A stretch of DNA of 64,000 nt from an uncultured Candidatus Saccharibacteria bacterium. Lineage in GTDB: Bacteria > Patescibacteriota > WWE3 > 2-01-FULL-39-13. This document shows positions 11,054 through 36,018 of this stretch, in pieces. Both the position numbers and the translations under genes were made by a program. The stretch's first letter is position 1; every line of letters begins with the position of its first letter. Below the pieces are notes generated by a model. It saw only the letters and a list, made by a program, of their open reading frames with translations, was not told the DNA's origin and made no database searches. The stretch is taken from contig CAYJKF010000002.1 in assembly GCA_964370865.1 (NCBI GenBank), positions 84,719 through 148,718 on the forward strand. Direction: 5' to 3'.

Positions 11054-11494
11054 ATGATTATAGGCGAGCATAAACAAAAAATAGGGGATAAAAATAGGAT
11101 CGCTTTCCCTAAAAAATTTAGAGAAGAGCTAGGAAACAAGCTAATAATAACTCGTGGTTACGAAGGGTGTCTCATAGTCATGTCACCTGCCCAGTGGGAG
11201 GAGATGACCCAAGATTCAATCAAGGGTCCATTCGTCTCTTCATTGATTAGAGACACCCGACGTTTTCTATTCGCCGGAGCAAGCGAAATCGAGCTTGATT
11301 CACAAGGACGTTTTGTAATTCCACCTTTTTTAATGGATTATTCAAATTTATCCCAAGAAGGAGTTTTTCTAGGACTCGGTAGATGGGTAGAACTTTGGAA
11401 TTCCGATAACTGGAATGCAAAACTAAAAGATATTGGTGACTCAAGTGGTGATGTAGCAGATCGTCTTGCCAAAACTGGAGATCAAGATGTATAA
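11054..11494 (+). CDS. mraZ: Transcriptional regulator MraZ
   Basis: MIIGEHKQKIGDKNRIAFPKKFREEL plus a second DXXXR-type repeat (LDSQGRFVIPPFL). First gene of the dcw cluster. Confidence 0.9.
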   Translation: MIIGEHKQKIGDKNRIAFPKKFREELGNKLIITRGYEGCLIVMSPAQWEEMTQDSIKGPFVSSLIRDTRRFLFAGASEIELDSQGRFVIPPFLMDYSNLSQEGVFLGLGRWVELWNSDNWNAKLKDIGDSSGDVADRLAKTGDQDV

Positions 11495-12350
11495 AACGGA
11501 TCATTTTCCAGTCATGTATAAAGAAGCATTGGATGCACTGAACGTTCAAGCAAATGAGCTTTATATTGATTGTAATTTGGGTCTTGGTGGACATACTTCT
11601 CTACTTTTGGAAAGAGGAGCAAGAGTAATTGGGATTGATGCCGATCATGAAGCAATTGAACATTGTAGAAAAAGATTTGAGAAGGAATTAGCAAGTGGCA
11701 CATTAAAAATTCTTCATATGAATTTCAGTAAAATAAATGAAATTCCTCTAGAAGACAAAGTAGCAGGAATTTTATATGATCTTGGATTAAACCTAGGTCA
11801 GCTTAAAGATTCTGAGCGTGGCTTTAGCTTTCATGACACTGGTGAACTCGATATGAGAATGGATACAACACTTGGCGTGAAGGCAATCGATCTAATAAGA
11901 TTGCTGAATGAAGATCAATTAAGCAAATTAATCTTTGAATACGGCGAAGATCCACAAGCCAGAATTTTCTCAAAAGCGATAAAATTTGCTGTAAAAAATG
12001 GAAAAATCCGAACTCCTTCGGATTTAGCAGAGGTAATTAGAAAAGCCTCAAAATATCCTTCCAGTAAATTACATCCTGCTACAAGAACATTTCAAGCATT
12101 ACGAATTGCAGTTAATAGTGAACTTGATTCTTTGCGAGAATCACTAGCTAATGCGATTCCGCTACTAAAACCGAGTGGCCGGCTAGTAATCATCAGTTTT
12201 CATTCACTCGAAGATGAGATATCAAAATCATTGGCGGAATCGCAGCAGCTTATATCAATAACAAAGAAGCCAGTAGAAGCGTCGCTTGATGAAGTCGAAA
12301 AAAATCCTCCATCAAGAAGCGCAAAAATGAGAGTCTATGAAAAACAATAA
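11487..12350 (+). CDS. rsmH: 16S rRNA (cytosine1402-N4)-methyltransferase RsmH (MraW)
   Basis: HFPVMYKEALDAL...YIDCNLGLGGHTS...GIDADHEA. Start chosen at the ATG overlapping the mraZ stop (ATGTATAAA). The ORF track gives an upstream alternative at 11466. Confidence 0.85.
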   Translation: MYKTDHFPVMYKEALDALNVQANELYIDCNLGLGGHTSLLLERGARVIGIDADHEAIEHCRKRFEKELASGTLKILHMNFSKINEIPLEDKVAGILYDLGLNLGQLKDSERGFSFHDTGELDMRMDTTLGVKAIDLIRLLNEDQLSKLIFEYGEDPQARIFSKAIKFAVKNGKIRTPSDLAEVIRKASKYPSSKLHPATRTFQALRIAVNSELDSLRESLANAIPLLKPSGRLVIISFHSLEDEISKSLAESQQLISITKKPVEASLDEVEKNPPSRSAKMRVYEKQ

Positions 12351-12621
12351 TTATCTAAAAATCTTAAATATATTACTCTTTATTGGATTAGTCCTAAGTT
12401 TTGCAGGAAGCCTGTATATGACAGATAAAGTCGCCTTAGCAGGAGCTAATTTAGGCAATATCGAAAGTAAAATTGATGATCAAGAAAAATATAATTATTA
12501 TCTAACAACCGAATTAAATCGATTAAATTCTACTGCAGTTTTATATGATAGAATCCAAACAGCTCAGTTTGTTAAAGCAAGCGTAGACTATATGGATGTT
12601 CCAGAATACGCATATAGGTAA
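12337..12621 (+). CDS. ftsL: FtsL-like cell division protein (septum formation initiator family)
   Basis: 94 aa with a single N-terminal TM helix and a coiled-coil. Lies in the conserved position between rsmH and ftsI. Confidence 0.55.
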   Translation: MKNNNYLKILNILLFIGLVLSFAGSLYMTDKVALAGANLGNIESKIDDQEKYNYYLTTELNRLNSTAVLYDRIQTAQFVKASVDYMDVPEYAYR

Positions 12622-12629
12622 AACCCTTT

Positions 12630-14333
12630 ATGAGGAAATTCAGCGACAGTACAAATTTTCGATTGGCACTGCCAAAATACTTCCTATATTTCGCAACTCT
12701 ATTTATTATTTTCAGACTTTTTCAAATCCAAGTACTAAATACTTCAAGATACAGAGCAGAAGCAAAGCAACAACAATGGAAGGGAAATACAATCCCTTCG
12801 AAAAGAGGCACAATCTATTCTTCTGACAAGTACCCGATTACTCAAAGTATTCAAAAGTACGATTTATATTACGAAGCCTCTGAGAAAACAGATGAAACTG
12901 AACTAATCGCTGGTCTTGATACAGTAATCGAATATGATAGGAATGAGGTTAGAAATATTCTCTTGAAGGAAACTCGAAGAGCCAAATTATTAACAAATCT
13001 TGATTACCAGCAAAAAACAATAATAGAAGGGCTTAAAATCCCAGGAGTAATAATCGAGCCTTACTACGTTAGGGAATATCCAGAAGATGATATGTTAGCC
13101 CATTTGCTTGGATTTGTCGGAAAAGACAAATATGGATCCGATGTAGGATACTACGGATTAGAGCAATACTATGATGGGGATTTATCTGGTACGCCTGGCA
13201 ATAAATTCCAAGAACAATCTGCATCAGGCAACATAATTCTATGGGGAAATACAGAAATTATTGAACCCGTTAATGGAAGTGATTTACATATCACTATCGA
13301 TCGTAATGTTCAGTTCTTAGCCGAGCAGAAAATAAAACATGGGGTTGATATATATAATGCAAAATCAGGAAGCGTTATAGTAGTCGAGCCTAATACAGGA
13401 AAAATTCTCGCGATGGCAAATTATCCCGTGTTTGACCTAGATAAATATGCGGATTTTGTCGATGAGAAAAATTTATTAAGAAATTCTGCAATAGGAACCG
13501 TTTACGAGGCGGGTTCTGTCATTAAACCAATTACTATGTCTTCAGCGATGGATGCAGGAAGTATTAGCATGAATTCTGTATATAACGATACTGGTCCAAA
13601 GATTTATTCAGGTCATAAGATAGACAATTGGGATGGTAAACACCATGGTGAAGAAACGATGACCGAGATTCTTCAGCACTCAAATAATATGGGAATGGCG
13701 TGGATTGGGACCCAAATTGGAGATAAGGCTTTGCTGGACTATTTTGCCAATTTTTATTTAGGGAAGAAATTATCAATTGATCTTGATGGAGAAGAGCGTG
13801 GATTAGTTTATTCGAATCCTCCACTTAAGGAAATTGAATTAGCAAATGCGTCATTTGGGCAAGGTATTTCGGTAACACCGCTCCAAGTTGCAATGTCATT
13901 CTCAGCAATAGCAAATAAAGGTTACTTGATGAAGCCGTATGTTGTGGAAGAAGTATCGGGTCCGGGTGGTTCCACTAAAACTGAGCCTGAAATTTTATCT
14001 AGACCGATTAGTACACAGACCGCGGATGAGATGGTGGGAATGTTAACAGAGGCTGTATCTGGCGGTGAGGCTAAGTTTTTTGTATCAAAAAAATACCAAA
14101 TCGCCGGAAAAACAGGAACAGCTCAAGTTCCTGTTTCTGGTGGTTACGATCCTAGTAGAACTAACGCGACTTTTGTTGGATTTTTCCCCTCATATAGAAA
14201 TTTTGTAATGTTAATTAGACTTGAAGAACCATCATCACCAAGTGGCTATGCAGCAGAGACCGCGGTACCTCTTTGGATGTCTTTAGCTGAAGAATTAGCA
14301 AACTACTACAATTTGCGACCTGATAAAGAATAA
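12630..14333 (+). CDS. ftsI: Peptidoglycan D,D-transpeptidase FtsI (class B PBP)
   Basis: N-terminal TM anchor. Transpeptidase motifs SVIKP (SxxK), HSNN (SxN) and KTGTA (KTG). 567 aa. Confidence 0.9.
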   Translation: MRKFSDSTNFRLALPKYFLYFATLFIIFRLFQIQVLNTSRYRAEAKQQQWKGNTIPSKRGTIYSSDKYPITQSIQKYDLYYEASEKTDETELIAGLDTVIEYDRNEVRNILLKETRRAKLLTNLDYQQKTIIEGLKIPGVIIEPYYVREYPEDDMLAHLLGFVGKDKYGSDVGYYGLEQYYDGDLSGTPGNKFQEQSASGNIILWGNTEIIEPVNGSDLHITIDRNVQFLAEQKIKHGVDIYNAKSGSVIVVEPNTGKILAMANYPVFDLDKYADFVDEKNLLRNSAIGTVYEAGSVIKPITMSSAMDAGSISMNSVYNDTGPKIYSGHKIDNWDGKHHGEETMTEILQHSNNMGMAWIGTQIGDKALLDYFANFYLGKKLSIDLDGEERGLVYSNPPLKEIELANASFGQGISVTPLQVAMSFSAIANKGYLMKPYVVEEVSGPGGSTKTEPEILSRPISTQTADEMVGMLTEAVSGGEAKFFVSKKYQIAGKTGTAQVPVSGGYDPSRTNATFVGFFPSYRNFVMLIRLEEPSSPSGYAAETAVPLWMSLAEELANYYNLRPDKE

Positions 14334-14349
14334 TTTAGTATTACACTGT

Positions 14350-15552
14350 ATGGATTTAGCTTCTACATATTTAATAAAGGGCGGTTGGTCTGCGCATGGG
14401 GATGTTGAGGTGTCTGGCGATACAAATTCCGCCATTGCAAATACATGCTTAGCATTACTTACTGGCGAAAAGAAAATCATTATAAATGCTCCTCGAACAA
14501 ATATTTTTTTAGCGTTTTTGAAGAACTTAGAATTATTAGGTGTTGAAATTAAATGGATTTCAATTTCTCAGATTAGTGTTGATGTTGATTGGAATGTATT
14601 TGATCCTGATTTTGTTCAATATTTGCCTGATTTAGTTCCCACTTTTTCAGAGATATTTATAAACCTAGTATTAGCAAAAAAATATTCAGTAAAAGTTCCG
14701 CTAAAATTTAGGACCCATTTACCAAGATATAAACGATTGGGTTGTATTGTCGAATTCTCTGATGATAATTATTTCTTAATTCAGGCACCAATACATAACA
14801 ACGTAGCTTTGCCCAAATATCATATACATTCTTTTCAAAAAGATTTCTACGCTTTATTGAATTATTCTCTATTAAAATATATTTATCCTAAAATACATAT
14901 TGATTTTGATAATAAGCCACACCCACTTAGGATTTTTAGCGACCAAGAATATATGAAGCAAGATAAATATAGCGTATCCGCAAATGTTTCAGAGGTGAAT
15001 TTTTATGCGATGCTTGCAGTATTAACTGATGGCGAATTAAATATTAAAGGGGTAGATTTAGAGCTTTCATTAGGTTTTCTAATGGATTTAGATGAGATAG
15101 GGGCGACTTATGAAGTAAAATCGAAAGTATTGAAAATCTGGCAAGACTTAAAGTTTTTAAAGCCAAAGTATAACTATATATCCTCAAATCCAGATGAATT
15201 AGGATATCTTTTACTATTTCATACTCTATACGGCGAGAAAAAAATTAGTATCACTTGTAGGGATTCTTTTGATATTAGAGATTTAATTAAAACGTTGAAT
15301 ATAATGGGTTGTTATATCAGTTATGAGCAACTACAGGATAAAATATTAGAATTAACAGTTAAGCCATCTGTTTTAGTCTCATTTAAATTGCCAATTCCTA
15401 ATGGTAGATGGGGAGGAGTCGTTTTAGCCGCAGCTATCGCTTACATTGGAAACAGCATAGTAACTGATATTGAGAGAATTTCTGACTACATTCCATTCTT
15501 AGAAGAAACACTTGAAAATCTTGATCTAAAATTAATTCCTAGAGCAAGTTAA
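14350..15552 (+). CDS. Divergent MurA/AroA (enolpyruvyl transferase, EPT) fold protein, probably non-catalytic
   Basis: The N-terminus (LIKGGWSAHGDVEVSGDTNSAIANTCLALLTGEKKIIINAPRTNIFLAFLKNLELLGVEIKW) aligns position-for-position with the MurA N-terminus (L.GeV.iSGaKNaaLpil.AaLLae.pv.i.NvP.l.Dv......L..LGa.v). Thr replaces MurA Lys22. No PGGC(T)IG Cys115 loop was found. Confidence 0.45.
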   Translation: MDLASTYLIKGGWSAHGDVEVSGDTNSAIANTCLALLTGEKKIIINAPRTNIFLAFLKNLELLGVEIKWISISQISVDVDWNVFDPDFVQYLPDLVPTFSEIFINLVLAKKYSVKVPLKFRTHLPRYKRLGCIVEFSDDNYFLIQAPIHNNVALPKYHIHSFQKDFYALLNYSLLKYIYPKIHIDFDNKPHPLRIFSDQEYMKQDKYSVSANVSEVNFYAMLAVLTDGELNIKGVDLELSLGFLMDLDEIGATYEVKSKVLKIWQDLKFLKPKYNYISSNPDELGYLLLFHTLYGEKKISITCRDSFDIRDLIKTLNIMGCYISYEQLQDKILELTVKPSVLVSFKLPIPNGRWGGVVLAAAIAYIGNSIVTDIERISDYIPFLEETLENLDLKLIPRAS

Positions 15553-16073
15553 ATATCCCGTAATTTAGTAATTGCCCTGTTTATAATAGTTCCAATGTTT
15601 GTTTCACTAATACTCAGAACTTCTGCAATTTTCTTATTTGAGTAGCCTTCATAAAATTTTAGTTTGATTATTACCTGTTCTCTATCTTTCAAATTCGTTA
15701 ATAAATTTTTCAAAGTAATCGAAGTTTCATCTTCAATTAACCGGTCTTCGATTGATTCTTTAGCGTCGGGAATAACATGTTCTATATCTATCTCAACGGT
15801 ATTCTTTAAAGTTCTCAAATAATCTACATATGTATTGTATGCAATTTTATATATCCACGCGGAGAAAGAGGTACCTTGCCATTTATAACCTGAAATATTC
15901 TTGAGTGCCTTTTCAAAAGTGGTGGATGCCAGGTCCTCGGCAGTATGTAAATTTCCATTCACTTTATGTTGCAAATATCTAACTACCTTTGGCCAGTAAT
16001 ATTCATATAATTTCCCAAAAGCCTTTTTGTCCTTTTTTGCCTTATTTATAAGTTTTTCTTCATTTTCAAGCAT
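15549..16073 (-). CDS. RNA polymerase sigma-70 factor, ECF subfamily
   Basis: Region 2 (YEYYWPKVVRYLQHKV...FSAWIYKIAYNTYVDYLR) and region 4 (LKFYEGYSNKKIAEVLSISETNIGTIINRAITKLR). Start chosen at ATGCTTGA, which overlaps the upstream gene's stop. The ORF track extends it to 16136. Confidence 0.85.
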   Translation of the reverse strand: MLENEEKLINKAKKDKKAFGKLYEYYWPKVVRYLQHKVNGNLHTAEDLASTTFEKALKNISGYKWQGTSFSAWIYKIAYNTYVDYLRTLKNTVEIDIEHVIPDAKESIEDRLIEDETSITLKNLLTNLKDREQVIIKLKFYEGYSNKKIAEVLSISETNIGTIINRAITKLRDI

Positions 16074-16908
16074 ATGCGTGAAGATAATTTTCAATAAAAG
16101 CTTTGATTTTAGGTTCGAAATCCCGTTTTCTTCCATAAAATATATAAGTTGTATTTGGTTTGTTTTCTATTGAATTAATTTTAGTAGGATTAGTAATTAA
16201 TATTTTGTTTTCAGGGAACATTTCTAATATGCTATTTAGGGGGATTGGATGAAAAAAATAGCAAGCGTCAACGACCATTGAACCATCTGGCAAATTAGTA
16301 AAGCGTATTCTAGGTATCGGAATGCTATTATTTCTGTCTATTTGGTTATTATTTTCGTGAAAATATTTATCAATATAAGCTAGAAGAATTGATTCATTTC
16401 CTTTGGAAATTTCCTTTATATCCTGGCTAGTTATAATTTCCGTGTTTTTTGAATATTTCTTTAGAGTTTCCATTTTTGCACTAGATTCGTCGATTAAGGA
16501 TAGAAATGGTTTAAGTATCGATATCCAGTAATTGAATATAAAAGGATTTTCATGATTTAAATCCAAAATCAACGTATGGGGGTATGGTCTAATGTAAATT
16601 AATCGCATAATCGAGATTGCAAGAAATTGAATCCAAGAGAGCATGTCACGTGGATAATATTTTTCTCCTAATATAAATAATCCAGTCGAGAATTCATTCC
16701 TTGTGGATTCTATATTACGACGTGGGTTTAAGGAAGGTGACAGATTGTTATACAAGGATTCCCGTATAAGTGTTGGAATTCTATCAGAAACAATGACTAC
16801 GATGGTTGTTTTGTGCTTTTTGATAGTAAATTGCACAATTGTTCCAATTGTCACCCTAGCAATAGTATGTTTAATATCTTTTAAACTCATAAAGTATAAT
16901 AACGTCAT
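16066..16908 (-). CDS. Hypothetical protein, translationally coupled upstream of the ECF sigma factor
   Basis: 280-aa ORF with no recognisable motif. Its stop TGA overlaps the sigma ATG within ATGCTTGA. No clear TM helix, so it does not look like a classical anti-sigma factor. Confidence 0.45.
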   Translation of the reverse strand: MTLLYFMSLKDIKHTIARVTIGTIVQFTIKKHKTTIVVIVSDRIPTLIRESLYNNLSPSLNPRRNIESTRNEFSTGLFILGEKYYPRDMLSWIQFLAISIMRLIYIRPYPHTLILDLNHENPFIFNYWISILKPFLSLIDESSAKMETLKKYSKNTEIITSQDIKEISKGNESILLAYIDKYFHENNNQIDRNNSIPIPRIRFTNLPDGSMVVDACYFFHPIPLNSILEMFPENKILITNPTKINSIENKPNTTYIFYGRKRDFEPKIKAFIENYLHAYA

Positions 16909-16957: not shown

Positions 16958-18175
16958 ATGCTAAATTTACGAAAAAGAAACACCTTAAAAACAAATAAAA
17001 CTGGCCCAAACTACCTACTTATAATTAATATCCTTGTTCTAATACTTATTGGAATTCTAATGGTATATGAAGCTTCACTTGTATATGCTACCCAGCGCTT
17101 TGGGAATCGATACCATTTTTTATTTCTGCAGAGTGCTTGGATGATCGCAGGTTTGTCTGTTGGATATCTAATTTCTAGAGTTAATTTAGAAATATTAAAA
17201 AAGTTTGCCTTTTACTTGTGGATTGCGAATATTTTATTTTTGATTTTTGTTTTACTGCCCACACCTTTTTCTCCTGAAGTGTATGGAGCGAAACGTTGGA
17301 TATATTTGAATCCCGAGGGATTATTACCAGCTTTACCGTTTTTAGGACGCCTATCCTTTCAACCAAGTGAATTAGTTAAGTTTACTTCACTGTTATATTG
17401 CAGTACTTTCCTGACTTCTTCAAAAACTACATCAATTAATGATTTTAAATTTTTACTGAAATATCTTGGTATAGTTGGTGTGACAGTTGGTTTGGTCTTT
17501 TTGCAACCTAATTTTTCAACAGCAACCATTATTGGCTCAATATTAATTGCTTTATACTTTTTTGCCGGTGGTAGGCTTTATTATTTCTTAATTGGTTTAC
17601 CAACTTTAATCGGTCTTGCCTCTGCATATGTATTTTCTTCCGAATATAGGCGATTAAGAATAATGACACTATTTGAACCGGATTCAATTGATAAAAGCAG
17701 TACGGGATATCATATTAACCAAATTATGATAGCCCTAGGTTCTGGAGGATTATTTGGACTCGGCCTTGGAAAGTCTCGGCAGAAATATTCATATTTACCA
17801 GAAGTCACTGCGGATTCGCTCTTTGCCGTTATTGGCGAAGAATTAGGATTTATCGGAGCTACTTTTGTAGTTTTGTTACTTGTTGGGTTAATTTGGCAAT
17901 GTTTTGATTTGGCAGCAAAAAGTACGACTCGCTTTAACATTTTAATATGCAGCGGGGTTGGAACTTGGTTAGCTGTTCAAACATTAATTAATCTTGGTGC
18001 GATTGTTAGAGTTATACCATTAACAGGAATTCCCTTACCTTTAATCTCGTATGGGGGATCGTCAGCAATATTCCTTTTAATGGCGCTTGGTTTAGTTGTG
18101 AATATTTCCGCCGACAATAATTCACCAGATACTAACGTCTCAAAAAAAGTTAAACTGCGTACTAGTGTAAAATAA
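16958..18175 (+). CDS. ftsW: Peptidoglycan glycosyltransferase / lipid II flippase FtsW (SEDS family)
   Basis: About 10 TM helices. SEDS-like segments GYHINQIMIALGSGGLFGLGLGKS and PEVTADSLFAVIGEELGFIG. Lies in the dcw cluster. Confidence 0.85.
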   Translation: MLNLRKRNTLKTNKTGPNYLLIINILVLILIGILMVYEASLVYATQRFGNRYHFLFLQSAWMIAGLSVGYLISRVNLEILKKFAFYLWIANILFLIFVLLPTPFSPEVYGAKRWIYLNPEGLLPALPFLGRLSFQPSELVKFTSLLYCSTFLTSSKTTSINDFKFLLKYLGIVGVTVGLVFLQPNFSTATIIGSILIALYFFAGGRLYYFLIGLPTLIGLASAYVFSSEYRRLRIMTLFEPDSIDKSSTGYHINQIMIALGSGGLFGLGLGKSRQKYSYLPEVTADSLFAVIGEELGFIGATFVVLLLVGLIWQCFDLAAKSTTRFNILICSGVGTWLAVQTLINLGAIVRVIPLTGIPLPLISYGGSSAIFLLMALGLVVNISADNNSPDTNVSKKVKLRTSVK

Positions 18176-18179
18176 TTGC

Positions 18180-19310
18180 ATGGTAAAAATTGTATTTACT
18201 GGAGGTCATCATAATTCAGCACTTGTTACTCTTGATGCATTACATGAGGAATTGAATCAAGAAGGAAAAAGTCATGCTTTTTTTTGGTTAGGTAAGAAAT
18301 ACATAGACAAGGAATGCACAGTCTTATCCCCTGAATTCATTGAAGTTACAAAACGCAAAGTCGATTTTATCGAATTTAGTGCCGGAAAACTATTTCGAAC
18401 ACACTCCATTTTATACATATGGAAAGTCATAATAAATTTGGCCAAAATTCCTTTGGGTTTTATTAAAGCCTATAATATTCTAGCCCAAATAAAGCCGAAT
18501 ATTATAGTTTCGTTTGGTGGTTACCTTGCAGTTCCCGTAGCTATTATAGGAAAACTTAAAGGGATTAAAGTAGTAAGCCACGAGCAAACTGCAACCTTTG
18601 GTTTAGCAAATAAAATTATTGGTTTTGTAGCAGATGAAATCTATGTGACTTGGAAGAAGGAAATATACCCCCAATATTTTAAGAAAAAAATAATCGAAAC
18701 AGGTTTACCAACCCGAATTATCGGGCAGACTGGTGAGAAATATGCCTTTAAAAATTTAAAACCCGTTTTATATGTCTCCGGTGGAAAACTCGGATCAGAT
18801 GTAATCAATACTACGATTTTTCAATCCCTTGATACTTTATTAACAAAGGTAAACATAATTTGGTCGATAGGTTCGAATTTTGTATCTTTTTCAGAAGAAC
18901 TATTGATAGAATATTTAACAAGACACCCCAATTATCAAGGATCAATAATTTATAGTAGATACTTTAACGAACTTGAAGTCGAGAAAATCTATAGGTCATT
19001 TCATTTCGGATTATCAAGAGCAGGAGCCCATACCACATACGAGTATGCGTATTATGCAAAACCATCCATTTTGATTCCGATACCATGGTCATCAAACCAG
19101 GAACAATTGAAAAATGCACAAATGTTAGCATCTCTTGGATTAGCAGAAATCATACTTGAGGAGAACTTCAATTCCACCAAATTGGTCGAAACAATCGATA
19201 TTGTTTTAGATAAATCTAATAGAGATATGTATCCAAAATCCGTTAAGATAGAACGTGAAGGTACAAAAAAAATCTGCCATGAAATTATTAAATATATTCA
19301 AAAAGCGTAA
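18180..19310 (+). CDS. murG: Undecaprenyldiphospho-muramoylpentapeptide beta-N-acetylglucosaminyltransferase MurG
   Basis: IVFTGGHHNSALVTLDAL N-terminus (MurG G-loop-like). GT-B length of 376 aa. Position after ftsW. Divergent from canonical MurG. Confidence 0.65.
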   Translation: MVKIVFTGGHHNSALVTLDALHEELNQEGKSHAFFWLGKKYIDKECTVLSPEFIEVTKRKVDFIEFSAGKLFRTHSILYIWKVIINLAKIPLGFIKAYNILAQIKPNIIVSFGGYLAVPVAIIGKLKGIKVVSHEQTATFGLANKIIGFVADEIYVTWKKEIYPQYFKKKIIETGLPTRIIGQTGEKYAFKNLKPVLYVSGGKLGSDVINTTIFQSLDTLLTKVNIIWSIGSNFVSFSEELLIEYLTRHPNYQGSIIYSRYFNELEVEKIYRSFHFGLSRAGAHTTYEYAYYAKPSILIPIPWSSNQEQLKNAQMLASLGLAEIILEENFNSTKLVETIDIVLDKSNRDMYPKSVKIEREGTKKICHEIIKYIQKA

Positions 19311-19962
19311 ATTTATTTTTATATTAGTTAGTCTTTTTGTTGCTATTTTTCTAATCCTATTCCTATATGTTTTTAGGGTTAATTCACTCGAAGTTGTATC
19401 GAACAGTGCCGAAGCTAATGCTGATTTCATCACGGCAAAAGAATCTTTACAAACAAAGTATATTGGTCAGAGCATGTTTTTTGTCGACAATATTGATGTG
19501 TCGGCATATTTATCAAGTTTCGTTTTTTCACATAAATTATCACACATTGTTAAAACCTATCCTTCACACATATCAGTCGTTGTAGAGCCCAGACAACCAA
19601 AGTATATTATTAAGGCACCAAATGGATTGTTCACTATTGATGCTGATTACTATGTGATTGAAAGTACGGAGGAGGGGAACGCTCAGATTGAATATCAGTC
19701 TGATTTGCTTGTAAGACGCCACATTGAAGATCAAAAATTAATTGCAGGGTTGAAATATTCTACTTTAGATGCCAAAGTGATAGTAGGTAATGAGATATCA
19801 ATAACATTTGAAGATGGATCAAAAGTTATTCTTCCTGAAGATCAGAATGCTGAAATAATATTAGATATATTGAAAAAGATTCGTCAAAAGTATACGATTG
19901 AAAACAGGGCTATCGAATTAATTGATTTAAGATACTCAAAGCCTATAATTAAATTTAAGTAA
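19279..19962 (+). CDS. ftsQ: Cell division protein FtsQ/DivIB-like (POTRA-containing)
   Basis: N-terminal TM helix followed by an extracytoplasmic domain. Lies between murG and ftsA. Start ambiguous: the ORF track gives 19255, overlapping the murG 3' end. Confidence 0.6.
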   Translation: MKLLNIFKKRKFIFILVSLFVAIFLILFLYVFRVNSLEVVSNSAEANADFITAKESLQTKYIGQSMFFVDNIDVSAYLSSFVFSHKLSHIVKTYPSHISVVVEPRQPKYIIKAPNGLFTIDADYYVIESTEEGNAQIEYQSDLLVRRHIEDQKLIAGLKYSTLDAKVIVGNEISITFEDGSKVILPEDQNAEIILDILKKIRQKYTIENRAIELIDLRYSKPIIKFK

Positions 19963-19963
19963 A

Positions 19964-21235
19964 ATGTCGAAAGATCAATTTGTAGTAGCATTAGATATAG
20001 GTTCCTCAAAAATTTCATGTGTTGTAGCTAATCTTGATGGTTCAAGAATTTCCGTAATAGGTGCGCATACAGGAGAGTCAAAAGGAATTAAATCTGGTGT
20101 AGTTAATAACATCGATAAGGCCGTTAGTAGCATTAATGATGTTATCAATAAAGCTGAGATGATGTCTGGGCAGGCTATTTCAAGAGTTGTTGTAACCATT
20201 AGTGGTACACATATTGAGTCGCTAAATTCACGAGGTGTAGTAGCTGTATCTGGTCAGAATTCAGAAATCAACGCAGATGACATAAGCAGAGTCAATGATG
20301 CTGCACAAGCCCTCTCACTCCCATCGTCACGTGAAATAATACATGTCTTGCCAAGAGAGTATGTAGTAGATCGTCAAAGAGGAATTTCCGACCCAAGTGG
20401 GATGACTGGAATCCGTTTAGAGGTCGAGGCAAACATAATTCACGGTAGTACGACAGCCATTAAAAATCTAGTTAAGTGTGTTCAACAAATAGGAATTGAA
20501 GTTGATCAGTTAGCATATTCAGGTCTATCGTCCGCCGAAGCAGTTTTAACTGATACAGAAAAGGAACTTGGTACAATTTTGATTGATATTGGCGGCGGGA
20601 CTATGGATTTAATTATTTACAGTAGTGGTAGACCAGCATATTCTGCGGTACTTCCAATAGGCGGTCAGGATATTACAAATGATTTGGCGATTGGACTAAG
20701 GGCATTATTAGAAGATGCCGAAAAAGTTAAAGTTAGACTCTCAGATCATGAGGAGTTTTCATCGAAAGCTGTGATTATAGATAAGAATGGTAGAGAAGCA
20801 AAAATTCCCAAAGGAGAGCTGTATGTCGGCGATTTGAATTTCGGAATGGATAGTGTGCCAATTGCTGTCCTAAACGAGATTATATACAAAAGGTTAGAAG
20901 AGGCATTTAAATTCGTAAAAATCTATGTTAAGAAAGCAGGGTTTGCAGATAAATTGCCTGCTGGAGTTGTCTTAACTGGTGGTACCTCTATGATTCCAGG
21001 AATTGAGAATATTGCTGAAGATATTTTTAAACTACCGGTAAGGGTTGGTAAGCCATCCGGAATAATTGGACTAGCAGATCAGATACAAACGCCATCTCAT
21101 TCGGCGGTTATTGGCGCATTAAAATACATCTCAAGCACTATACAAGAAACTGGTAGAACAAATGGTAGAAGAAGTGGTACTATAATGGGGATTAACGAGA
21201 GAATAAAAAGTTTTTTCAAATCGTTTCTGCCTTAA
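19964..21235 (+). CDS. ftsA: Cell division protein FtsA (actin-like ATPase)
   Basis: VVALDIGSSKISCVVA phosphate-1 motif and DIGGGTMDL phosphate-2 motif. 423 aa. Immediately upstream of ftsZ. Confidence 0.9.
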   Translation: MSKDQFVVALDIGSSKISCVVANLDGSRISVIGAHTGESKGIKSGVVNNIDKAVSSINDVINKAEMMSGQAISRVVVTISGTHIESLNSRGVVAVSGQNSEINADDISRVNDAAQALSLPSSREIIHVLPREYVVDRQRGISDPSGMTGIRLEVEANIIHGSTTAIKNLVKCVQQIGIEVDQLAYSGLSSAEAVLTDTEKELGTILIDIGGGTMDLIIYSSGRPAYSAVLPIGGQDITNDLAIGLRALLEDAEKVKVRLSDHEEFSSKAVIIDKNGREAKIPKGELYVGDLNFGMDSVPIAVLNEIIYKRLEEAFKFVKIYVKKAGFADKLPAGVVLTGGTSMIPGIENIAEDIFKLPVRVGKPSGIIGLADQIQTPSHSAVIGALKYISSTIQETGRTNGRRSGTIMGINERIKSFFKSFLP

Positions 21236-21239
21236 AAAT

Positions 21240-22562
21240 ATGCCATTTATAGCGCCAAAGAGCGAAAATCCTGCAAAAATAAAAGTAATTGGAGTTGGGG
21301 GTGGAGGTCAGAATGCCATCAACACTATGGTTAACCTAGGAGAGACATACGGTGTTGAGTATATTGCTATGAATACCGACCTTCAGGCCTTGAATTCATG
21401 CGAAGCACCAACAAAGCTACAGCTTGGTCCTGGACGTACTCATGGTTTAGGTTCTGGAGCAGATCCATCCGTTGGACAAGATGCGGCATTTGAATCAGTT
21501 GAAGATGTTAAAAAATTATTAGAGGGCGCAAACATGGTGTTTGTCGCGGCTGGTTTAGGTGGAGGCACTGGAACCGGAGCTAGTCCCGTTGTGGCCCAAA
21601 TTGCTAAAGAACTTGGGATTTTGACGGTTGGAGTTGTCACAAAACCATTTGTATTCGAAGGAAAAAGAAGAATGGCTCAAGCCGATCAAGGTATAAAAGA
21701 TTTGAAAAGCAGAGTGGATGCACTTATTGTAATTCCAAATGAAAAATTATTAGAAGTTGTTGAAGAAAAAACTTCTATGCAAGATGCGTTTAAGGTTGTT
21801 GATAGGGTTGTTGGAAATGCTGTCAAAGGAATTTCTGATTTAATTACATCGGCTGGACTAATCAATGTAGACTTTGCTGATATTGAAACTGTTATGAGTA
21901 ATGCTGGATCCGCCTTAATGGGTATAGGTAAGGCAAATGGTGAGAATAGAGCGGAGAAGGCCGCCAAAATGGCTATTAATTCCCCACTGCTCGGCATTGA
22001 TATAAAAGGATCAACGGGTATTTTATTAAATATTGTTGGAGACTCAACAATGACAATGCACGAGGTTAACACAGCTGCTAAATTAGTATCAGAGTCAGCA
22101 AATGAAAACGCTAATATAATATTTGGAGCCAATATCGATCCTACAATTGATGGTGTTCAGGTTACCGTTATCGCGACAGGTTTTGATTCAGATTTTAAAG
22201 ATATTTCTATTCCAAATAATTCAACCGGGATTAGCGATAGAGACGTAATTGAACAAATAGATTCAAGATATGACAACATTAAAAAGAAACCAGTTGTTGT
22301 AGAAGATGAGATTGAAGAATTAGAAGAGAAGGTAGAACAACAAAAAGATAGGGATTTTAGTTTTAGCGAAATAGATTCGACTCCAAAAGATGATACAGAT
22401 GTATTAAAGAATTTACGAAAAGAAGTAGAGGAAATGGAAAAAAAGGAAAAACCTTCAACTGATAAATCACCATTTGATTCAGAAGATGATGATTCTGATC
22501 AGGATAGCTCTGATGATACCAAGAGCAACTTTTGGAATTTTATGAAGGATCGAAAGAAATAA
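21240..22562 (+). CDS. ftsZ: Cell division GTPase FtsZ
   Basis: IKVIGVGGGGQNAINTM and the tubulin signature GGGTGTGASPVVAQIAKE. Acidic Asp/Glu/Ser-rich C-terminal tail. Confidence 0.95.
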   Translation: MPFIAPKSENPAKIKVIGVGGGGQNAINTMVNLGETYGVEYIAMNTDLQALNSCEAPTKLQLGPGRTHGLGSGADPSVGQDAAFESVEDVKKLLEGANMVFVAAGLGGGTGTGASPVVAQIAKELGILTVGVVTKPFVFEGKRRMAQADQGIKDLKSRVDALIVIPNEKLLEVVEEKTSMQDAFKVVDRVVGNAVKGISDLITSAGLINVDFADIETVMSNAGSALMGIGKANGENRAEKAAKMAINSPLLGIDIKGSTGILLNIVGDSTMTMHEVNTAAKLVSESANENANIIFGANIDPTIDGVQVTVIATGFDSDFKDISIPNNSTGISDRDVIEQIDSRYDNIKKKPVVVEDEIEELEEKVEQQKDRDFSFSEIDSTPKDDTDVLKNLRKEVEEMEKKEKPSTDKSPFDSEDDDSDQDSSDDTKSNFWNFMKDRKK

Positions 22563-31033: not shown

Positions 31034-31768
31034 ATGCCCAAAAAACTAGTCAAACAAGAACAACTAACACAAGCAAATTTAAAGAGTTTACAGGAAACTT
31101 TTATAGCGATTACCTCACATAAATTTCTTTCACCTATTACTGTTATTAAGTGGAATCTTGAACTATTAATGGAATCAAGCAGTGCATTATCTGAGAAGGA
31201 CAAAGAAAAACTTTTAGATATCAAAAATAATGTGCAGCGTTTAGATGATATTACTAAATTATTGCTTCGTATTTATGAAGTTGCAACTAGTCCAAGTGTT
31301 GGATCATTTAAAAATTATTCTCCAGGACTAATAGTAGATCAGATTTTGCAGGAGTATTCACTTCTAATAAAACAAAACCGACTTACCATCATCAATAATG
31401 TTAAAAACGAAGATTCGTACCACTTGCCAGGCTCTGAATACTTTATGAGAGAAATTTTAAGATCTGTTATAGATAATGCAGTTAACTACAACGTGAAAGA
31501 AGGCAAAATACAAATCGACCTAACCTCAAGTGCTAAGGCTGTCAAAATTTCTCTCCAGGATACTGGAATTGGAATTCCTGAAAAAGATCAAAATCTAATT
31601 TTTAATCCGTTTTATCGTGCTTCAAATGTCATGAAAATGTCATTCAATGGAAATGGTTTGGGGTTATATATGTCGAAAATGGGTTTAAATTTAGTTGGCG
31701 GGGATATTCGTTTTTCCTCCAACCCTGGTGTTGGGTCGAAATTCGAGTTGGTTTTTCCAATATTATAG
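31034..31768 (+). CDS. Sensor histidine kinase, soluble: HisKA + HATPase_c only, with no TM or sensor domain
   Basis: H-box ITSHKFLSPIT. N, G1 and G2 boxes (DNAVNYN, QDTGIGIP, GNGLGLYM). Confidence 0.8.
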   Translation: MPKKLVKQEQLTQANLKSLQETFIAITSHKFLSPITVIKWNLELLMESSSALSEKDKEKLLDIKNNVQRLDDITKLLLRIYEVATSPSVGSFKNYSPGLIVDQILQEYSLLIKQNRLTIINNVKNEDSYHLPGSEYFMREILRSVIDNAVNYNVKEGKIQIDLTSSAKAVKISLQDTGIGIPEKDQNLIFNPFYRASNVMKMSFNGNGLGLYMSKMGLNLVGGDIRFSSNPGVGSKFELVFPIL

Positions 31769-31781
31769 TTCTCAACAACAT

Positions 31782-32180
31782 ATGGGTGAATTACGCAAAG
31801 TAAAAAGAATCTTAATAGTGGATGATAATGAGTTCTTCGCTAAAGTTATTAAAAGTGAATTACTAAATCATGGTTATGAAGTCGATATCGTATATAACGG
31901 TGAACAAGCAATAGATTTTTTAAAACATACTAAAGTAGATTTAATCTTGCTGGATATAATTATGCCAATCAAGGATGGTTTCGAGACTATGGAAGAAATA
32001 AAGAAAAATGAACTCACAAAAGATATTAGTGTAGTTTTCTTTTCAAATTTAGGGCAGGCTGAAGATATTCAGAAAGCAATGGATCTTGGGGCACAATCAT
32101 ATATTGTAAAAAAAGATTTTTCTCTGAAAGAGGTGATGAATAATATAGAAATGCATATCAGAAAATCCGATAGCTTGTAA
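31782..32180 (+). CDS. Response regulator, stand-alone receiver domain (CheY-like)
   Basis: ILIVDDNEFF...DLILLDIIMP...K conserved Asp/Lys positions. No output domain. The ORF-track start (31695) overlaps the kinase, so MGELRK was used. Confidence 0.8.
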   Translation: MGELRKVKRILIVDDNEFFAKVIKSELLNHGYEVDIVYNGEQAIDFLKHTKVDLILLDIIMPIKDGFETMEEIKKNELTKDISVVFFSNLGQAEDIQKAMDLGAQSYIVKKDFSLKEVMNNIEMHIRKSDSL

Positions 32181-32246: not shown

Positions 32247-32720
32247 ATGTTTACTCCTGATAATAGAAAGAAAAAAGGATTCACGTTAATTGAGTTATTA
32301 GTTGTCATTGCTATTATTGCTACCTTGGCAGTTGTTGCTTTTGTAGCCTTAGATCCTGTAAGAAGAATTCGAGATGCTCAAAATGCTACTCGAAGGACTG
32401 ATGTGGAAAATATCTCACAGGCTATTGCTTTACAAACAATAGATGATGCTGGAGTTTTACCAGTAGGACTTGTGGCTGATGGTTTGACATACCAGATAGG
32501 AACCTGCGCAGCGGGTGCAGATACACTTTGTCCAGGTGCACAAGCCGCTTGTGTAGACTTGTCAACAGTATTAGCCCAGAAGCTTAACCCAATCCCAACA
32601 GATCCGGATTCAGGTACGGCAGCTACAACAGGATATTCGGTATCGGTTGATGCTAACAATATCGTAACTGTAACCTCATGTGGTGCAGAAGGTGTAGATC
32701 CAATCTATACATCTAAGTAA
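32247..32720 (+). CDS. pilA: Type IV pilin (major pilin candidate) with class III signal peptide
   Basis: Prepilin leader/cleavage site KKKGFTLIELLVVIAIIATLAVVAF. Four Cys in the C-terminal region. Followed by a strong intrinsic terminator. Confidence 0.85.
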   Translation: MFTPDNRKKKGFTLIELLVVIAIIATLAVVAFVALDPVRRIRDAQNATRRTDVENISQAIALQTIDDAGVLPVGLVADGLTYQIGTCAAGADTLCPGAQAACVDLSTVLAQKLNPIPTDPDSGTAATTGYSVSVDANNIVTVTSCGAEGVDPIYTSK

Positions 32721-32738
32721 GTACAAGTTTAGATACAT

Positions 32739-32774
32739 GGCGCTTTCCCGCAAATGCGGGAAAGCGCTTTTTTG
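32739..32774 (+). terminator. Rho-independent terminator downstream of the pilin gene
   Basis: GGCGCTTTCCCGC-AAAT-GCGGGAAAGCGC, a perfect 13-bp GC-rich stem, followed by TTTTTTG. Confidence 0.85.
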
Positions 32775-32828
32775 TTCTTCTTTTTGTTGTTAAACGACTC
32801 CATTTCATATAAGATTTAGTTACTGCCC

Positions 32829-34520
32829 ATGCAAATTACTGATGAAATTCTAAAAACGATTTTGTTGGATACCCAATTGATATCCGATAAACAATTTGAA
32901 TTAGCTATTAAGAGTGCTAAGGCTCAAGGCACGACTCTTTACCATTATTTTGTTGATTCCAACACAATAAAAGATACTGATTTAGGTCAGTTAATCGCAA
33001 ATCACTTCAAACTTCCATACATTGATTTAAGCCGAGTGGCAATTCCAGATAACGTGTTGAGAATAATTCCCGAAGATACGGCGCGAAAGAGAAAATTTAT
33101 AAGCTTTTTAGACGAAAAGGATATTTTACATGTTGCAACTCCGAGTCCGGAGGATGTAGAGATGATAAGTTTTCTTGAAAAAAAAATAAATAAAAAAATT
33201 CTAGTACATTACACAACTGATAGAAATATTAAAGATACTCTAAATAGCTATGCAAAGAATGTAACTTTGGCTTTCGAAGATATCCTTGCTGAAAATATAA
33301 AACAAATAAAAAATTCTTTTACCGGAACATCCGAGCCACCAATTATTAAAATCGTAGATACTATTATTGAATATGCGTTCAAAAATAAAGCTTCGGATGT
33401 ACATCTTGAGCCCGTAGATACGTATTCATTACTTAGATTTAGAGTTGATGGTTTGTTAAAGGATATTGTTAAATTGCCAAAAGAGTTACATGATCGCTTA
33501 GTCACAAGAATAAAAGTTATGAGTGACTTAAGAACTGACGTTAGGCAGGCTCCACAAGATGGAAAAATCCACATTAAATTAAGTGAGGAGACCTTAAATC
33601 TTAGGGTTTCAATTGTTCCTGTTCTTGGTGGTGAAAAAGTTGTACTTAGAGTCCTAGCGGAAAAAAATAAAGGACTTGGTTTGGTTGAATTAGGTTTTAG
33701 AGATGAATCGTTAAAGAGAATCGAAGAATCATATAGAAAACCCTACGGAATGATTTTAACCACAGGTCCGACTGGTTCTGGAAAAACAACAACCCTATAT
33801 GCAATTCTGAAAGAAATCAATACTCGTGAAATTAATATTATGACAATCGAAAATCCTGTTGAGTATGAAATTGAAGGGATAAGCCAAATTCAAGTAAACC
33901 CAAAAGCAGGATTAACCTTTGCTACTGGACTTAGATCAATTGTTAGACAAGATCCAGATGTAGTACTAGTTGGAGAAATAAGAGATGAGGAAACCGCCAA
34001 AATTGCTATAAATGCCGCTATGACCGGGCATCTCGTTCTATCGACTTTACATACAAATGATGCCGCAACAACCATTCCTAGACTATTTGATATGGGAATT
34101 GAGCCTTTTCTTGTTGCTTCCTCTACGAATGTAATAGTTGGGCAAAGACTTGTGAGAAAAATTTGTGAACAATGTAGAGTTACTGAAGTTCATGATAGAA
34201 AAAATTGGGAAGAATCCACTCAATTATTTCCAAAAGAAATGATTAAGAAAGTCTTTGGAGATAAAAATGAAATACATACGTACGTGGGAAAGGGTTGTGA
34301 TATTTGTAACCATTCTGGCTATAAGGGTAGAGTCGGAATCTATGAAGTCATGTACGTAAGTGAGGAAATTAGGAGGGCAATAGTAAGTAAAGAAAACGCA
34401 GCGACGATTGCTGAAATTGCAAAAAAAGAGGGAATGATAACGATGTTTGAAGACGGTCTTGAAAAGGTAAAAATGGGAACTACAACACTTGCAGAGGTAA
34501 TTCGTGGAACGAAAGAATAA
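32829..34520 (+). CDS. pilB: Type IV pilus assembly ATPase PilB (GspE family)
   Basis: N-terminal GSPII_E_N-like domain. Walker A LTTGPTGSGKTTT. Asp box and Walker B. His box. Tetracysteine motif CEQC...CDIC. 563 aa. Confidence 0.9.
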   Translation: MQITDEILKTILLDTQLISDKQFELAIKSAKAQGTTLYHYFVDSNTIKDTDLGQLIANHFKLPYIDLSRVAIPDNVLRIIPEDTARKRKFISFLDEKDILHVATPSPEDVEMISFLEKKINKKILVHYTTDRNIKDTLNSYAKNVTLAFEDILAENIKQIKNSFTGTSEPPIIKIVDTIIEYAFKNKASDVHLEPVDTYSLLRFRVDGLLKDIVKLPKELHDRLVTRIKVMSDLRTDVRQAPQDGKIHIKLSEETLNLRVSIVPVLGGEKVVLRVLAEKNKGLGLVELGFRDESLKRIEESYRKPYGMILTTGPTGSGKTTTLYAILKEINTREINIMTIENPVEYEIEGISQIQVNPKAGLTFATGLRSIVRQDPDVVLVGEIRDEETAKIAINAAMTGHLVLSTLHTNDAATTIPRLFDMGIEPFLVASSTNVIVGQRLVRKICEQCRVTEVHDRKNWEESTQLFPKEMIKKVFGDKNEIHTYVGKGCDICNHSGYKGRVGIYEVMYVSEEIRRAIVSKENAATIAEIAKKEGMITMFEDGLEKVKMGTTTLAEVIRGTKE

Positions 34521-34521
34521 A

Positions 34522-35574
34522 ATGATTTTGCTTAAACGGGTATCCTTTTTAGATAAGCTAATGTTTACAAAACATTTAGCGATAATGATTAAATCCGGTG
34601 TTCCAATATTTGAGGCTATAGAATCTTTGGCAGCTAATAGCGAGAGTGAGTATTTCAAATTTGTATTAAAAGATGTTTTAGTTGGTATTGAAAACGGTAA
34701 GTCCTTATGTGATGCGTTTAAAAAATATCCGAAAATATTCGATGATTTTTATACAAGCTTGATAAAAGTTAGCGAGGATTCTGGAACTTTAGAAGAGACT
34801 TTAGAATTTTTAAGCGAGCAGCTCGCCAAAGACTACGCACTACGAAAAAAAATCCAGGGAGCTATGTTTTACCCAGCGATAATTATGGTCACCGGAGTTG
34901 GAATAGCGGGTTTCATTTCTCTTTTTATCTTGCCCCAATTAGTAGGGTTTTTCACATCTCTTGATATAGAATTGCCTCTTCCAACAAAAATCTTATTATT
35001 CATCGCGAACATAATGAAGGACCACGGTGTTTTGATATTTGGCGGAGGCGCAATATTTTTTATCTTCTTAAGATGGTTCTTTAATACAAAATATTTTAAA
35101 CCGGTATGGCATAAAATATTATTACGCATTCCAATTTTTGGCAAATTACTAAAATATGGTCAGTTGGCTCGTTTTAGTCGCAATTTAGCTACTTTGGTAA
35201 AGAGTGGTGTTCCAATTGCGGAGGGATTAAGGACTGCTTCAAACACAATGTCCAATGTTGTTTATAGAAATTACTTACTAATAGTTAGGGAGGATTTGAT
35301 TAAAGGAAAAAGTATTAGTGTTTCACTTGAAGCAAGAAAATTTTCTGAAATTCCTGCAATGTTAACTAAAATGATTGGTGTTGGTGAAAAAACAGGTAAT
35401 CTCGAAGAAGTTCTATTGTATTTAAGCGAATTCTATGAAGAAGAAGTTGACGATATGGCGAAAAATTTAACCACTATGCTTGAGCCAATTCTATTGGTGG
35501 GAATTGGTGGGATGGTAGCATTCATAGCATTAGCAATTATTGGACCAATTTACAAAGTTACCAGTAGTTTTTAA
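34522..35574 (+). CDS. pilC: Type IV pilus platform protein PilC (GspF family)
   Basis: Two repeated GspF domains and three TM segments. Start ambiguous: 34504 or 34522. Confidence 0.85.
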   Translation: MILLKRVSFLDKLMFTKHLAIMIKSGVPIFEAIESLAANSESEYFKFVLKDVLVGIENGKSLCDAFKKYPKIFDDFYTSLIKVSEDSGTLEETLEFLSEQLAKDYALRKKIQGAMFYPAIIMVTGVGIAGFISLFILPQLVGFFTSLDIELPLPTKILLFIANIMKDHGVLIFGGGAIFFIFLRWFFNTKYFKPVWHKILLRIPIFGKLLKYGQLARFSRNLATLVKSGVPIAEGLRTASNTMSNVVYRNYLLIVREDLIKGKSISVSLEARKFSEIPAMLTKMIGVGEKTGNLEEVLLYLSEFYEEEVDDMAKNLTTMLEPILLVGIGGMVAFIALAIIGPIYKVTSSF

Positions 35575-36018
35575 ATGAAATCTATAACAAATAGAATATA
35601 TAAAGCATTTTCTTATAATGAACTGTTGCTAAGTGTCACGATTATAGCAATCCTCTCTGCTATGGCAGGACCTTATTTATTGAATTCCTTAACGTCAAAT
35701 CAAGTGGAACAGACATCTCGAATCATAATTTCGCTACTTAGATCATCTCAACAGTATTCAATTGATAGGATTGAAAATGCCAACTGGGGAGTTTGTATGG
35801 TTGATGGTGAGATTATGCAGTATAAAAACTCATGTACTTCAGAAAATATACAGAAAACTTATATACCAGAGCCAAATATATCAATTAACGGATTAAACAA
35901 TGTTTTCTTCGAAAGTTATACGGGTGAACTGTCTTCTACTATAAGTATTTCCATAACAGATGGAATCGAGAGTCGATTAATTGAAATTAATGAGATCGGA
36001 GGATATGAAATCAATTAA
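35575..36018 (+). CDS. Pseudopilin / minor pilin-like protein (degenerate prepilin N-terminus)
   Basis: N-terminus KAFSYNELLLSVTIIAILSAMA resembles a class III signal peptide and has Glu+5, but has Ala instead of Gly at the cleavage site. Confidence 0.5.
   Translation: MKSITNRIYKAFSYNELLLSVTIIAILSAMAGPYLLNSLTSNQVEQTSRIIISLLRSSQQYSIDRIENANWGVCMVDGEIMQYKNSCTSENIQKTYIPEPNISINGLNNVFFESYTGELSSTISISITDGIESRLIEINEIGGYEIN

Follow-up and report, generated by a model that had tools for sequence, protein, structure and literature searches.

MurA, the UDP-N-acetylglucosamine (UDP-GlcNAc) enolpyruvyl transferase that opens the pathway to cell-wall precursors, is a two-domain inside-out alpha/beta-barrel in which Lys22 binds and activates phosphoenolpyruvate (PEP), Cys or Asp115 is the general acid and the target of fosfomycin, and Asp305 abstracts a proton in the elimination step. 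Here we describe a gene for a protein that has the enolpyruvyl transferase (EPT) fold of MurA and has lost most of its active site. The gene lies at positions 14350-15552 of the forward (+) strand of a 64,000-nucleotide stretch of contig CAYJKF010000002.1, from an uncultured bacterium deposited as Candidatus Saccharibacteria; this whole stretch is referred to below as the window. It is an open reading frame (ORF) of 400 aa, complete from ATG to stop, within the division and cell wall (dcw) cluster. We call it the EPT-like gene, and its degenerate, MurA-like relatives the SGD family.

Several described systems resemble this one in part. EnvC and NlpD are degenerate LytM factors and pseudoenzyme regulators of wall synthesis. 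Mycobacterial CwlM is described in PMC4946905 and PMC12723410 as an inactive amidase homologue that stimulates MurA. The likeness to CwlM, EnvC and NlpD is conceptual only, as the folds are unrelated and the partners there are experimentally established. Closer in fold is Pseudomonas aeruginosa MurA, which activates LpxC in a manner separable from catalysis (Hummels et al. 2023, PMC9995270); it offers a MurA fold acting as a protein-binding regulator, but is also a working enzyme, and no LpxC was seen in any locus that we examined. The Firmicute proteins MurAA and MurAB (MurA1/MurZ), as presented in PMC12077105, provide two wall-linked EPT paralogues per genome; both are active transferases, whereas here one copy lacks an active site. 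NikO and AroA share the fold and differ in keeping the cationic PEP site; against the AroA model TIGR01356 the window protein scores 35.8 bits, below the cut-off of 287.25, there are no aro genes in the window, and there is no shikimate or nikkomycin context. The MurA of WWE3 and other Patescibacteria has the same fold, is found on the same contig in relatives, and probably represents the partner in the duplication or a counterpart in function. For an EPT-fold pseudoenzyme with MurA ancestry, both the fold and the kind of protein are known; a catalytically dead MurA paralogue is new in the literature searched, which yielded no account of such a protein from Patescibacteria or elsewhere.

Results

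A MurA-like fold

A first-pass annotation, made from the letters of the window, had noted that the N-terminus of the protein resembles UDP-GlcNAc enolpyruvyl transferase, and had proposed profile searches and structure prediction as checks. The Pfam model EPSP_synthase (PF00275) matches the window protein with 32 bits (E=7.3e-8), above its gathering score of 22.8, which places the protein in the EPT superfamily. NCBIfam MurA models align their positions 3-76 with residues 6-79 (E=8e-12 to 3e-11); this segment, encoded at 14365-14586 (+), forms the first of the fold's six beta-alpha-beta-alpha-beta-beta units, including the NxPR motif, and is the part closest to MurA in alignments with PDB structures as well. 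The NCBIfam scores are far below the cut-offs of the models: 42.8 bits against 392.7 for the murA equivalog TIGR01072, and 44.6 against 297 for NF006873.

The remainder of the protein is covered once the family is used in place of the single sequence. A profile of 29 members finds MurA structures in PDB at E=2e-20, and aligns with the whole of Aquifex MurA (8-393 against 14-420, E=1.6e-15). The AlphaFold2 (AF2) model built from the family alignment has a predicted local distance difference test score (pLDDT) of 93.2 and a predicted template modelling score (pTM) of 0.91; a run from 6 sequences only gave a pLDDT of 64 and was not used. In a Foldseek comparison with PDB the top matches are all MurA (E=2e-24, template modelling (TM) score 0.70-0.75, 14-17% identity), with NikO and AroA (4fqd, 3slh) among the lower-ranked ones. 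Set beside MurA of E. coli (1UAE) and Aquifex (2YVW), the window protein shows the same two-domain barrel (TM ~0.73), full-length homology and the structural motifs G14, N43-x-P45, E234, L-x-x-M-G and D305 (MurA numbering); it differs in being about 20 residues shorter, and acidic where MurA is basic. Both checks agree with the first impression gained from the N-terminus, and on the strength of these alignments and of the model we regard the product of ORF 14350-15552 as a genuine EPT-fold protein.

Family-wide loss of active-site residues

The SGD family was defined by searching 1.84 billion representatives with a profile (a word-indexed homologue search with a broad family alignment gave 8 proteins). 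It is compact: E is at most 1e-30 for 25 representatives and at most 1e-23 for about 34, and every one of them has 385-410 aa and is covered by the match from end to end. Beyond a gap in the scores the search brings in other MurA-like proteins and canonical MurAs. To count residues, we took the 150 listed profile matches and aligned the 128 full-length proteins in this list with E. coli MurA, and about 30 family members, each representing a cluster at 50% identity, were compared with 51 canonical MurAs. The E. coli reference has 419 aa and carries K22, C115, R120, D305 and R397 where the standard numbering places them.

Residues S22-G23-D24-T25-N26 of the window protein (14413-14427, +) align with S19-G20-A21-K22-N23 of MurA, which puts Thr in place of the catalytic Lys. 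The MurA loop 111-121, with PGGC and Cys115, is missing: the hidden Markov model (HMM) alignment with Aquifex MurA shows a deletion of nine residues ('LPGGCSIGA') at residues 117-118 (14698-14703, +), and in the AF2 model strand 113-117 abuts helix 118-129 with no loop between them. The first-pass annotation had reported the Thr for Lys22 and had failed to find the PGGC loop. It was right on both counts, and the loss goes further than it described, extending through the family to N23, R91, R120, R331, R371 and R397.

Among the canonical MurAs K22 is invariant; it is present in none of 30 family members, which have Ser, Pro or Thr at this position and never Lys or Arg. The C/D115 loop (residues 113-119), also invariant in the canonical set, is deleted in 30 of 30. 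Five further invariant residues survive only sporadically: N23 and R91 in 2/30 each, R371 in 3/30, and R120 and R397 in 1/30 each. R331, which is Arg in 50 canonical MurAs and Lys in one, is found in 0/30. The best-kept active-site position is D305, invariant in canonical MurAs and retained by 18/30. The window protein itself reads T25, N26 and T at K22, N23 and R91, has the Cys115 loop deleted, and reads L, D282, I, R and D at R120, D305, R331, R371 and R397, respectively; D282, the counterpart of MurA D305 in the alignments, is encoded at 15193-15195 (+).

The same annotation had named one observation that would speak against its reading, namely catalytic residues that are present but shifted. 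For Lys and Cys this can be ruled out: there is no Lys in residues 15-36, and the Cys residues at 33, 132, 303 and 321 fall elsewhere; the Asp has its counterpart in D282. With the six cationic residues of the PEP/UDP-GlcNAc site lost throughout the family, and the loop deleted, the alignments make it very unlikely that these proteins bind PEP and UDP-GlcNAc or carry out enolpyruvyl transfer. That the window protein in particular is not an enolpyruvyl transferase we hold with high confidence.

The family has a signature of its own in D24 (the SGD motif; 29/30), R49 (NVPR; 30/30) and W264 (30/30). W69, Y254 and E215 are likewise found in 30/30, but are shared with, or similar in, canonical MurA. 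Most positions conserved in the family are fold-structural and common to MurA. The net charge has been reversed: it is -7 for the window protein and -6.4 on average for the family, compared to a mean of +2.6 for canonical MurAs.

Database names for family members comprise 'MurA', 'UDP-N-acetylglucosamine enolpyruvyl transferase', 'hypothetical protein' and 'Enolpyruvate transferase domain-containing protein'; MDQ5981401.1, for example, is named MurA by NCBI, and P0012 is named enolpyruvyl transferase by JGI. Taxonomic labels are equally mixed. Proteins identical or 91% identical to the window protein are deposited as 'Patescibacteria group bacterium', a GTDB scan with the family returned two loci (one Patescibacteria group bacterium, one 'Candidatus Saccharibacteria'), and OGC48077.1 (28% identity) comes from candidate division WWE3. 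A member at 42% identity, encoded in a division cluster of the same synteny, is found on CAZFZJ010000011.1 (locus L011), again labelled 'uncultured Candidatus Saccharibacteria bacterium'. Either one of the two labels, Saccharibacteria or WWE3, may be wrong, or the family may span more than one class.

Degeneracy is also encountered outside the SGD family. In the alignment drawn from the 150 listed matches, 44 of the 128 full-length proteins fall outside the family and are without one or more of K22, C/D115, R120, D305 and R397; one of them, P0040, has R at position 22 and no Cys loop, and its gene lies between secG and mraY. As far as these alignments go, degenerate MurA-like proteins seem widespread and varied.

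Purifying selection and a conserved position

The ratio of nonsynonymous to synonymous substitution rates (dN/dS) was calculated against the orthologous locus with a 91%-identical EPT-like protein (L010, GTDB contig JAUPVU010000018). For the EPT-like gene the ratio is 0.035, compared to 0.032 for ftsI, 0.045 for ftsW, 0.026 for ftsZ and 0.104 for murG; with dS at about 1.4, near saturation, all of these values are approximate. Length and fold are kept down to 20-25% identity.

The location of the gene is just as strongly conserved. In nine of nine loci (the window, which is L001; L003, L004, L005, L008, L010, L011, L012 and L015/L016), whose EPT-like proteins show 25-91% identity, it stands directly 3' of ftsI. 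Position and orientation within the mraZ...ftsZ cluster are therefore conserved across divergent genomes, as defines a component of the dcw cluster. In L003 and L015/L016 the stop of the EPT-like gene and the start of ftsW overlap by 4 nt. The protein diverges faster than its neighbor: in L015 the identity is 29% for the EPT-like protein and 53% for FtsI.

Two minus-strand genes that separate the EPT-like gene from ftsW in the window do not share this constancy. A sigma factor gene is present in L005, L010 and L012, is reduced to a remnant in L008, and is absent from L003, L004, L011 and L015; it is a lineage-specific insertion outside the core arrangement. The other, encoding a protein of 274 aa, is, like the sigma gene, confined to some lineages.

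Complete MurA beside the degenerate copy in relatives

The relative L012 has the gene order ftsI, degenerate EPT gene (P0036), sigma gene (-), 264-aa gene (-), a second EPT gene, murB, ftsW and murG. Its flanks are syntenic with the window, with GT4, Bac_transf, DUF4012, RecO and GlyRS upstream and IleRS downstream. P0036 has the SGD motif and no Cys loop. The second EPT gene (12598-13941 of that locus) passes NF006873 with 300.8 bits against the cut-off of 297, and its product has K22, N23, R91, PGGC (GGC115), R120, D305 and R397. The homologues of this protein, the MurAs of WWE3 and other Patescibacteria, retain K22, N23, R91, C115, R120, D305 and R397 in 118 of 118 cases.

A scan of JGI metagenomes seeded with the L012-type MurA returned 75 loci. 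A degenerate EPT copy is found together with a complete MurA on one contig in L012 (the same sequence as L017), L018, L033, L034, L045, L051 and L064, and in L034, L045 and L064 the two genes are directly in tandem. On every such contig that reaches upstream (all but the short L064) the degenerate copy is preceded by ftsI, and the complete MurA is followed by murB wherever the contig extends far enough (it does not in L034 and L064). The ftsI-adjacent copies in L018 (6339-7586) and L033 (7280-8524) are half-degenerate: they keep GAKN or GARN, D305 and R331, and have lost the Cys115 loop, R120, R371 and R397. Each of these two contigs also has, downstream of the half-degenerate copy, the paired genes for a complete MurA and for MurB.

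Because the degenerate copy resides together with a complete MurA in relatives, we interpret it as a MurA paralogue turned pseudoenzyme. The alternative of a highly divergent MurA, which the first-pass annotation had left standing, is disfavored by the same co-residence. The split is old. Identity between the degenerate copy and the co-resident WWE3-type MurA is about 24% over part of the length, and in BLAST the latter ranks behind other Patescibacteria MurAs; since the degenerate copies are nearer to those MurA-like proteins, we reject a recent duplication from the co-resident gene.

The WWE3-type MurA (P0165-P0284; ~436 aa) is itself unusual. Gly replaces R331 in 118/118 sequences, Gln replaces R371 in 107/118, and 'PNKN' is found where most MurAs have 'SGxKN'. 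Judged from its residues, it is presumably an active, if unusual, active-site variant of bona fide MurA.

Whereabouts of the other mur genes

The 64-kb window and the 10 kb flanking it at either end were covered by Pfam searches, gene calls and tblastn; no murA, murB, Mur ligase or mraY gene was found there, and tblastn revealed no relic of murA or murB either. In the window about 50 nt separate the 274-aa gene from ftsW; L012 has murA-murB in this place. In other Patescibacteria murA is clustered with murB and the Mur ligases away from the division cluster; such a division of the mur genes is usual in these bacteria. This lineage, too, may have its mur genes in a separate operon, which would explain why the window lacks them. 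The first-pass annotation was thus correct that murE, murF, mraY and murD are missing between ftsI and ftsW, but this probably does not mean that the pathway has been lost. The motifs of FtsI are intact (SxxK, SxN, KTG), purifying selection acts on ftsW and murG, and a murA elsewhere in this genome seems likely.

Organization of the window and neighboring genes

ORF and Pfam calls agree with the first-pass placement of the EPT-like gene between ftsI and ftsW. The plus-strand cluster opens with mraZ, rsmH and a small ftsL-like ORF (11054-12621; Pfam MraZ and Methyltransf_5), followed by ftsI, a class B penicillin-binding protein gene (12630-14333; Pfam PBP_dimer and Transpeptidase, with the three motifs in its translation). 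The EPT-like gene starts 16 nt after the ftsI stop. It is followed on the plus strand by ftsW, encoding the SEDS (shape, elongation, division and sporulation) polymerase (16958-18175; Pfam FTSW_RODA_SPOVE, E=8e-86), by murG (18180-19310; Glyco_transf_28 and Glyco_tran_28_C), and by an ftsQ-like ORF, ftsA and ftsZ at the tail (19255-22562; FtsA/SHS2_FTSA and Tubulin/FtsZ_C). The window is AT-rich, with a GC-content of about 34%; the longest contig on which the EPT-like gene was found measures 571 kb. A scan for promoters and terminators gave fewer sites than in shuffled sequence, and the stretch 5' of the start codon of the EPT-like gene shows no purine run resembling a Shine-Dalgarno site.

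The cluster is broken between the EPT-like gene and ftsW by the two minus-strand genes, a pair inserted in the division operon. The first encodes an extracytoplasmic function (ECF)-like sigma-70 factor (15549-16136, -; Pfam Sigma70_r2 and r4); it is convergent with the EPT-like gene and its end overlaps the stop of the latter by 4 nt. Upstream of it on the same strand is the gene of the 274-280-aa protein (16066-16908, -), which has no Pfam match. Homologues of this protein occur in L005, L010, L012, L018, L033 and L051. A profile of seven sequences gives four PDB matches at E<=1, of which the best three are all MurF (3zl8, E=0.005; 2am1 and 3zm5, E=0.009-0.010), with the match to MurF split into one piece over the P-loop region and a second, colinear one over the C-terminal domain; an hhalign comparison with a mixed Mur-ligase alignment was not significant. 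The Walker A motif is intact in L051 ('ITGSGKTS'), altered to 'G(S/D/N)GETS' in L012, L018 and L033, and reads 'VSDRIPT' in the window; dN/dS is 0.136. By its profile matches this is probably a truncated, degenerating MurF-derived protein with a degenerate P-loop.

Three further features of the window lie away from the cluster. A type IV pilus set (32247-38279, +) includes a PilB-like ATPase (32829-34520), a PilC-like platform protein (34504-35574) and three proteins with an N-terminal methylation motif (32247-32720, 35981-37783 and 37665-38279), and is preceded by a histidine kinase and a response regulator (31034-32180). A protein of 587 aa (44351-46114, -) combines Radical_SAM, Radical_SAM_C and GNAT domains in an Elp3-like architecture, which is uncommon in bacteria. 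A protein of 515 aa (46816-48363, +) joins MtrA-like N-terminal, partial thymidylate-synthase and C-terminal PterinBD-DUF4346 domains; for an enzyme dependent on folate or pterin such a fusion is unusual.

Discussion

We propose that a duplicate of murA arose beside murA within the dcw cluster in a lineage of Patescibacteria (WWE3 and relatives), and that the copy 3' of ftsI kept the two-domain EPT fold while losing the residues for PEP and UDP-GlcNAc binding and for catalysis. The gene would be co-transcribed with ftsI, ftsW and murG, and translationally coupled in some relatives; its product would be a cytoplasmic, non-catalytic partner, either scaffold or regulator, of the septal FtsI-FtsW-MurG module, which it might link to precursor supply. 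We assign a probability of roughly 0.6 to this reading of the protein as a MurA-derived pseudoenzyme acting on FtsI-FtsW-MurG, with the partner taken from gene order. A protein that is non-catalytic in vivo, with FtsI, FtsW and MurG as partners and the real murA elsewhere, seems to us most likely. The designation as pseudoenzyme draws on residue loss together with purifying selection in the window, and on the active paralogue that is co-resident on the contigs of relatives. The first-pass annotation had already seen a degenerate MurA/EPT-fold protein in the division cluster, and this part stands; its further suggestion, recruitment to divisome or peptidoglycan regulation, is an inference from operon position and selection.

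Several points weigh against the proposal. Gene order is the sole source for the partner. D24, R49 and E215 are charged and invariant or nearly so, D282 is frequent, and together these residues might make up a new site for a ligand or for catalysis. The murA expected of this genome was not found in the ~84 kb, of ~570 kb, that were covered, and in the search seeded with the L012 MurA no match among the best 120 of 734 was assigned to this organism. Finally, saturation makes the dN/dS ratios approximate.

The charged residues are the starting point for a different interpretation, in which the protein is a neo-functionalized EPT-fold enzyme or small-molecule sensor whose rebuilt acidic cleft (D24, R49, E215, D282) receives a ligand of wall synthesis, probably a non-anionic one. 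The four residues presumably sit at helix N-termini facing the interdomain cleft, a placement taken from homology with the EPT fold. The near-invariance of D24, the complete conservation of R49, W264, E215, W69 and Y254, and the Asp at D282/D305 in 18/30 are what one would expect of such a site, selection is strong, and EPT enzymes with other substrates exist, NikO being among the fold matches. Yet the six cationic residues for PEP and the UDP-sugar have gone from the family with nothing equivalent conserved in their place, the mobile catalytic loop is deleted, the conserved positions are mostly those that hold the fold in MurA as well, and the faster divergence compared to ftsI is easier to reconcile with a binding scaffold than with a precise active site. 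We consider this interpretation unlikely, although it is the most serious competitor to a pseudoenzyme partner.

Much less probable is that the protein is the sole MurA of the cell, highly divergent but functional with a non-canonical active site. The names given by NCBI and JGI say as much, there is no other EPT gene in the 84 kb, and the intact-looking FtsI, FtsW and MurG need a source of UDP-N-acetylmuramic acid (UDP-MurNAc). Against this, the family is without K22, the Cys/Asp115 loop, R120, R371 and R397, and we know of no active MurA that lacks all of these together; 51 canonical and 118 WWE3-type MurAs all keep K22, C/D115, R120, D305 and R397. The positional counterpart of the gene coexists with a complete MurA-MurB in relatives, and 43 bits is a small fraction of the equivalog cut-off of 393. 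Least probable of all, to the point of being nearly negligible, is a decaying relic of a former cluster murA, a pseudogene in progress. The lost catalytic residues would suit it, as would the missing murA-murB pair that relatives have nearby. The frame, however, is intact and codes for 385-410 aa in ~30 representatives, the model is compact and confident, and strict position and coupling to ftsW persist across lineages at 25-30% identity; on the basis of this conservation and of a dN/dS of 0.035 we rejected the pseudogene.

If the protein is instead the pseudoenzyme partner that we favor, a stronger and quite tentative version can be formulated, one that we would not expect to hold in full: in WWE3-type Patescibacteria the septal synthase (FtsW-FtsI, with MurG) would require the SGD-family protein as a stoichiometric subunit on its cytoplasmic side. 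The acidic, charge-reversed cleft of this protein would clamp the basic cytoplasmic tail of FtsW or FtsI and so gate septal synthesis; the N-termini of both proteins in the window are rich in Lys and Arg. Such gating would replace the regulatory role that other divisome proteins have in model bacteria. Were this true, the SGD family, together with its MurF-derived neighbor, would mark a lineage that has repeatedly recycled Mur enzymes into regulators, and in the most reduced members (~570 kb) the protein might outlast de novo UDP-MurNAc synthesis where that is lost in favor of scavenging from a host.

The finding has consequences for how these genomes are read. With MurA labels from NCBI and JGI on a protein of this kind, metabolic reconstructions of ultra-small Patescibacteria may score the precursor step as present on account of a protein unfit to catalyze it; they may equally overlook the existence of two distinct EPT genes. 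The metagenomic loci can be arranged from complete MurA, through the half-degenerate copies of L018 and L033, to the fully degenerate copies of L012, L034, L045, L051, L064 and the SGD family, a series that offers a natural record of an essential enzyme becoming a pseudoenzyme after tandem duplication. In a large uncultured radiation that probably lacks part of the divisome repertoire of model organisms, a dead copy held under selection of the grade seen in divisome genes points to an uncharacterized component of division or wall synthesis.

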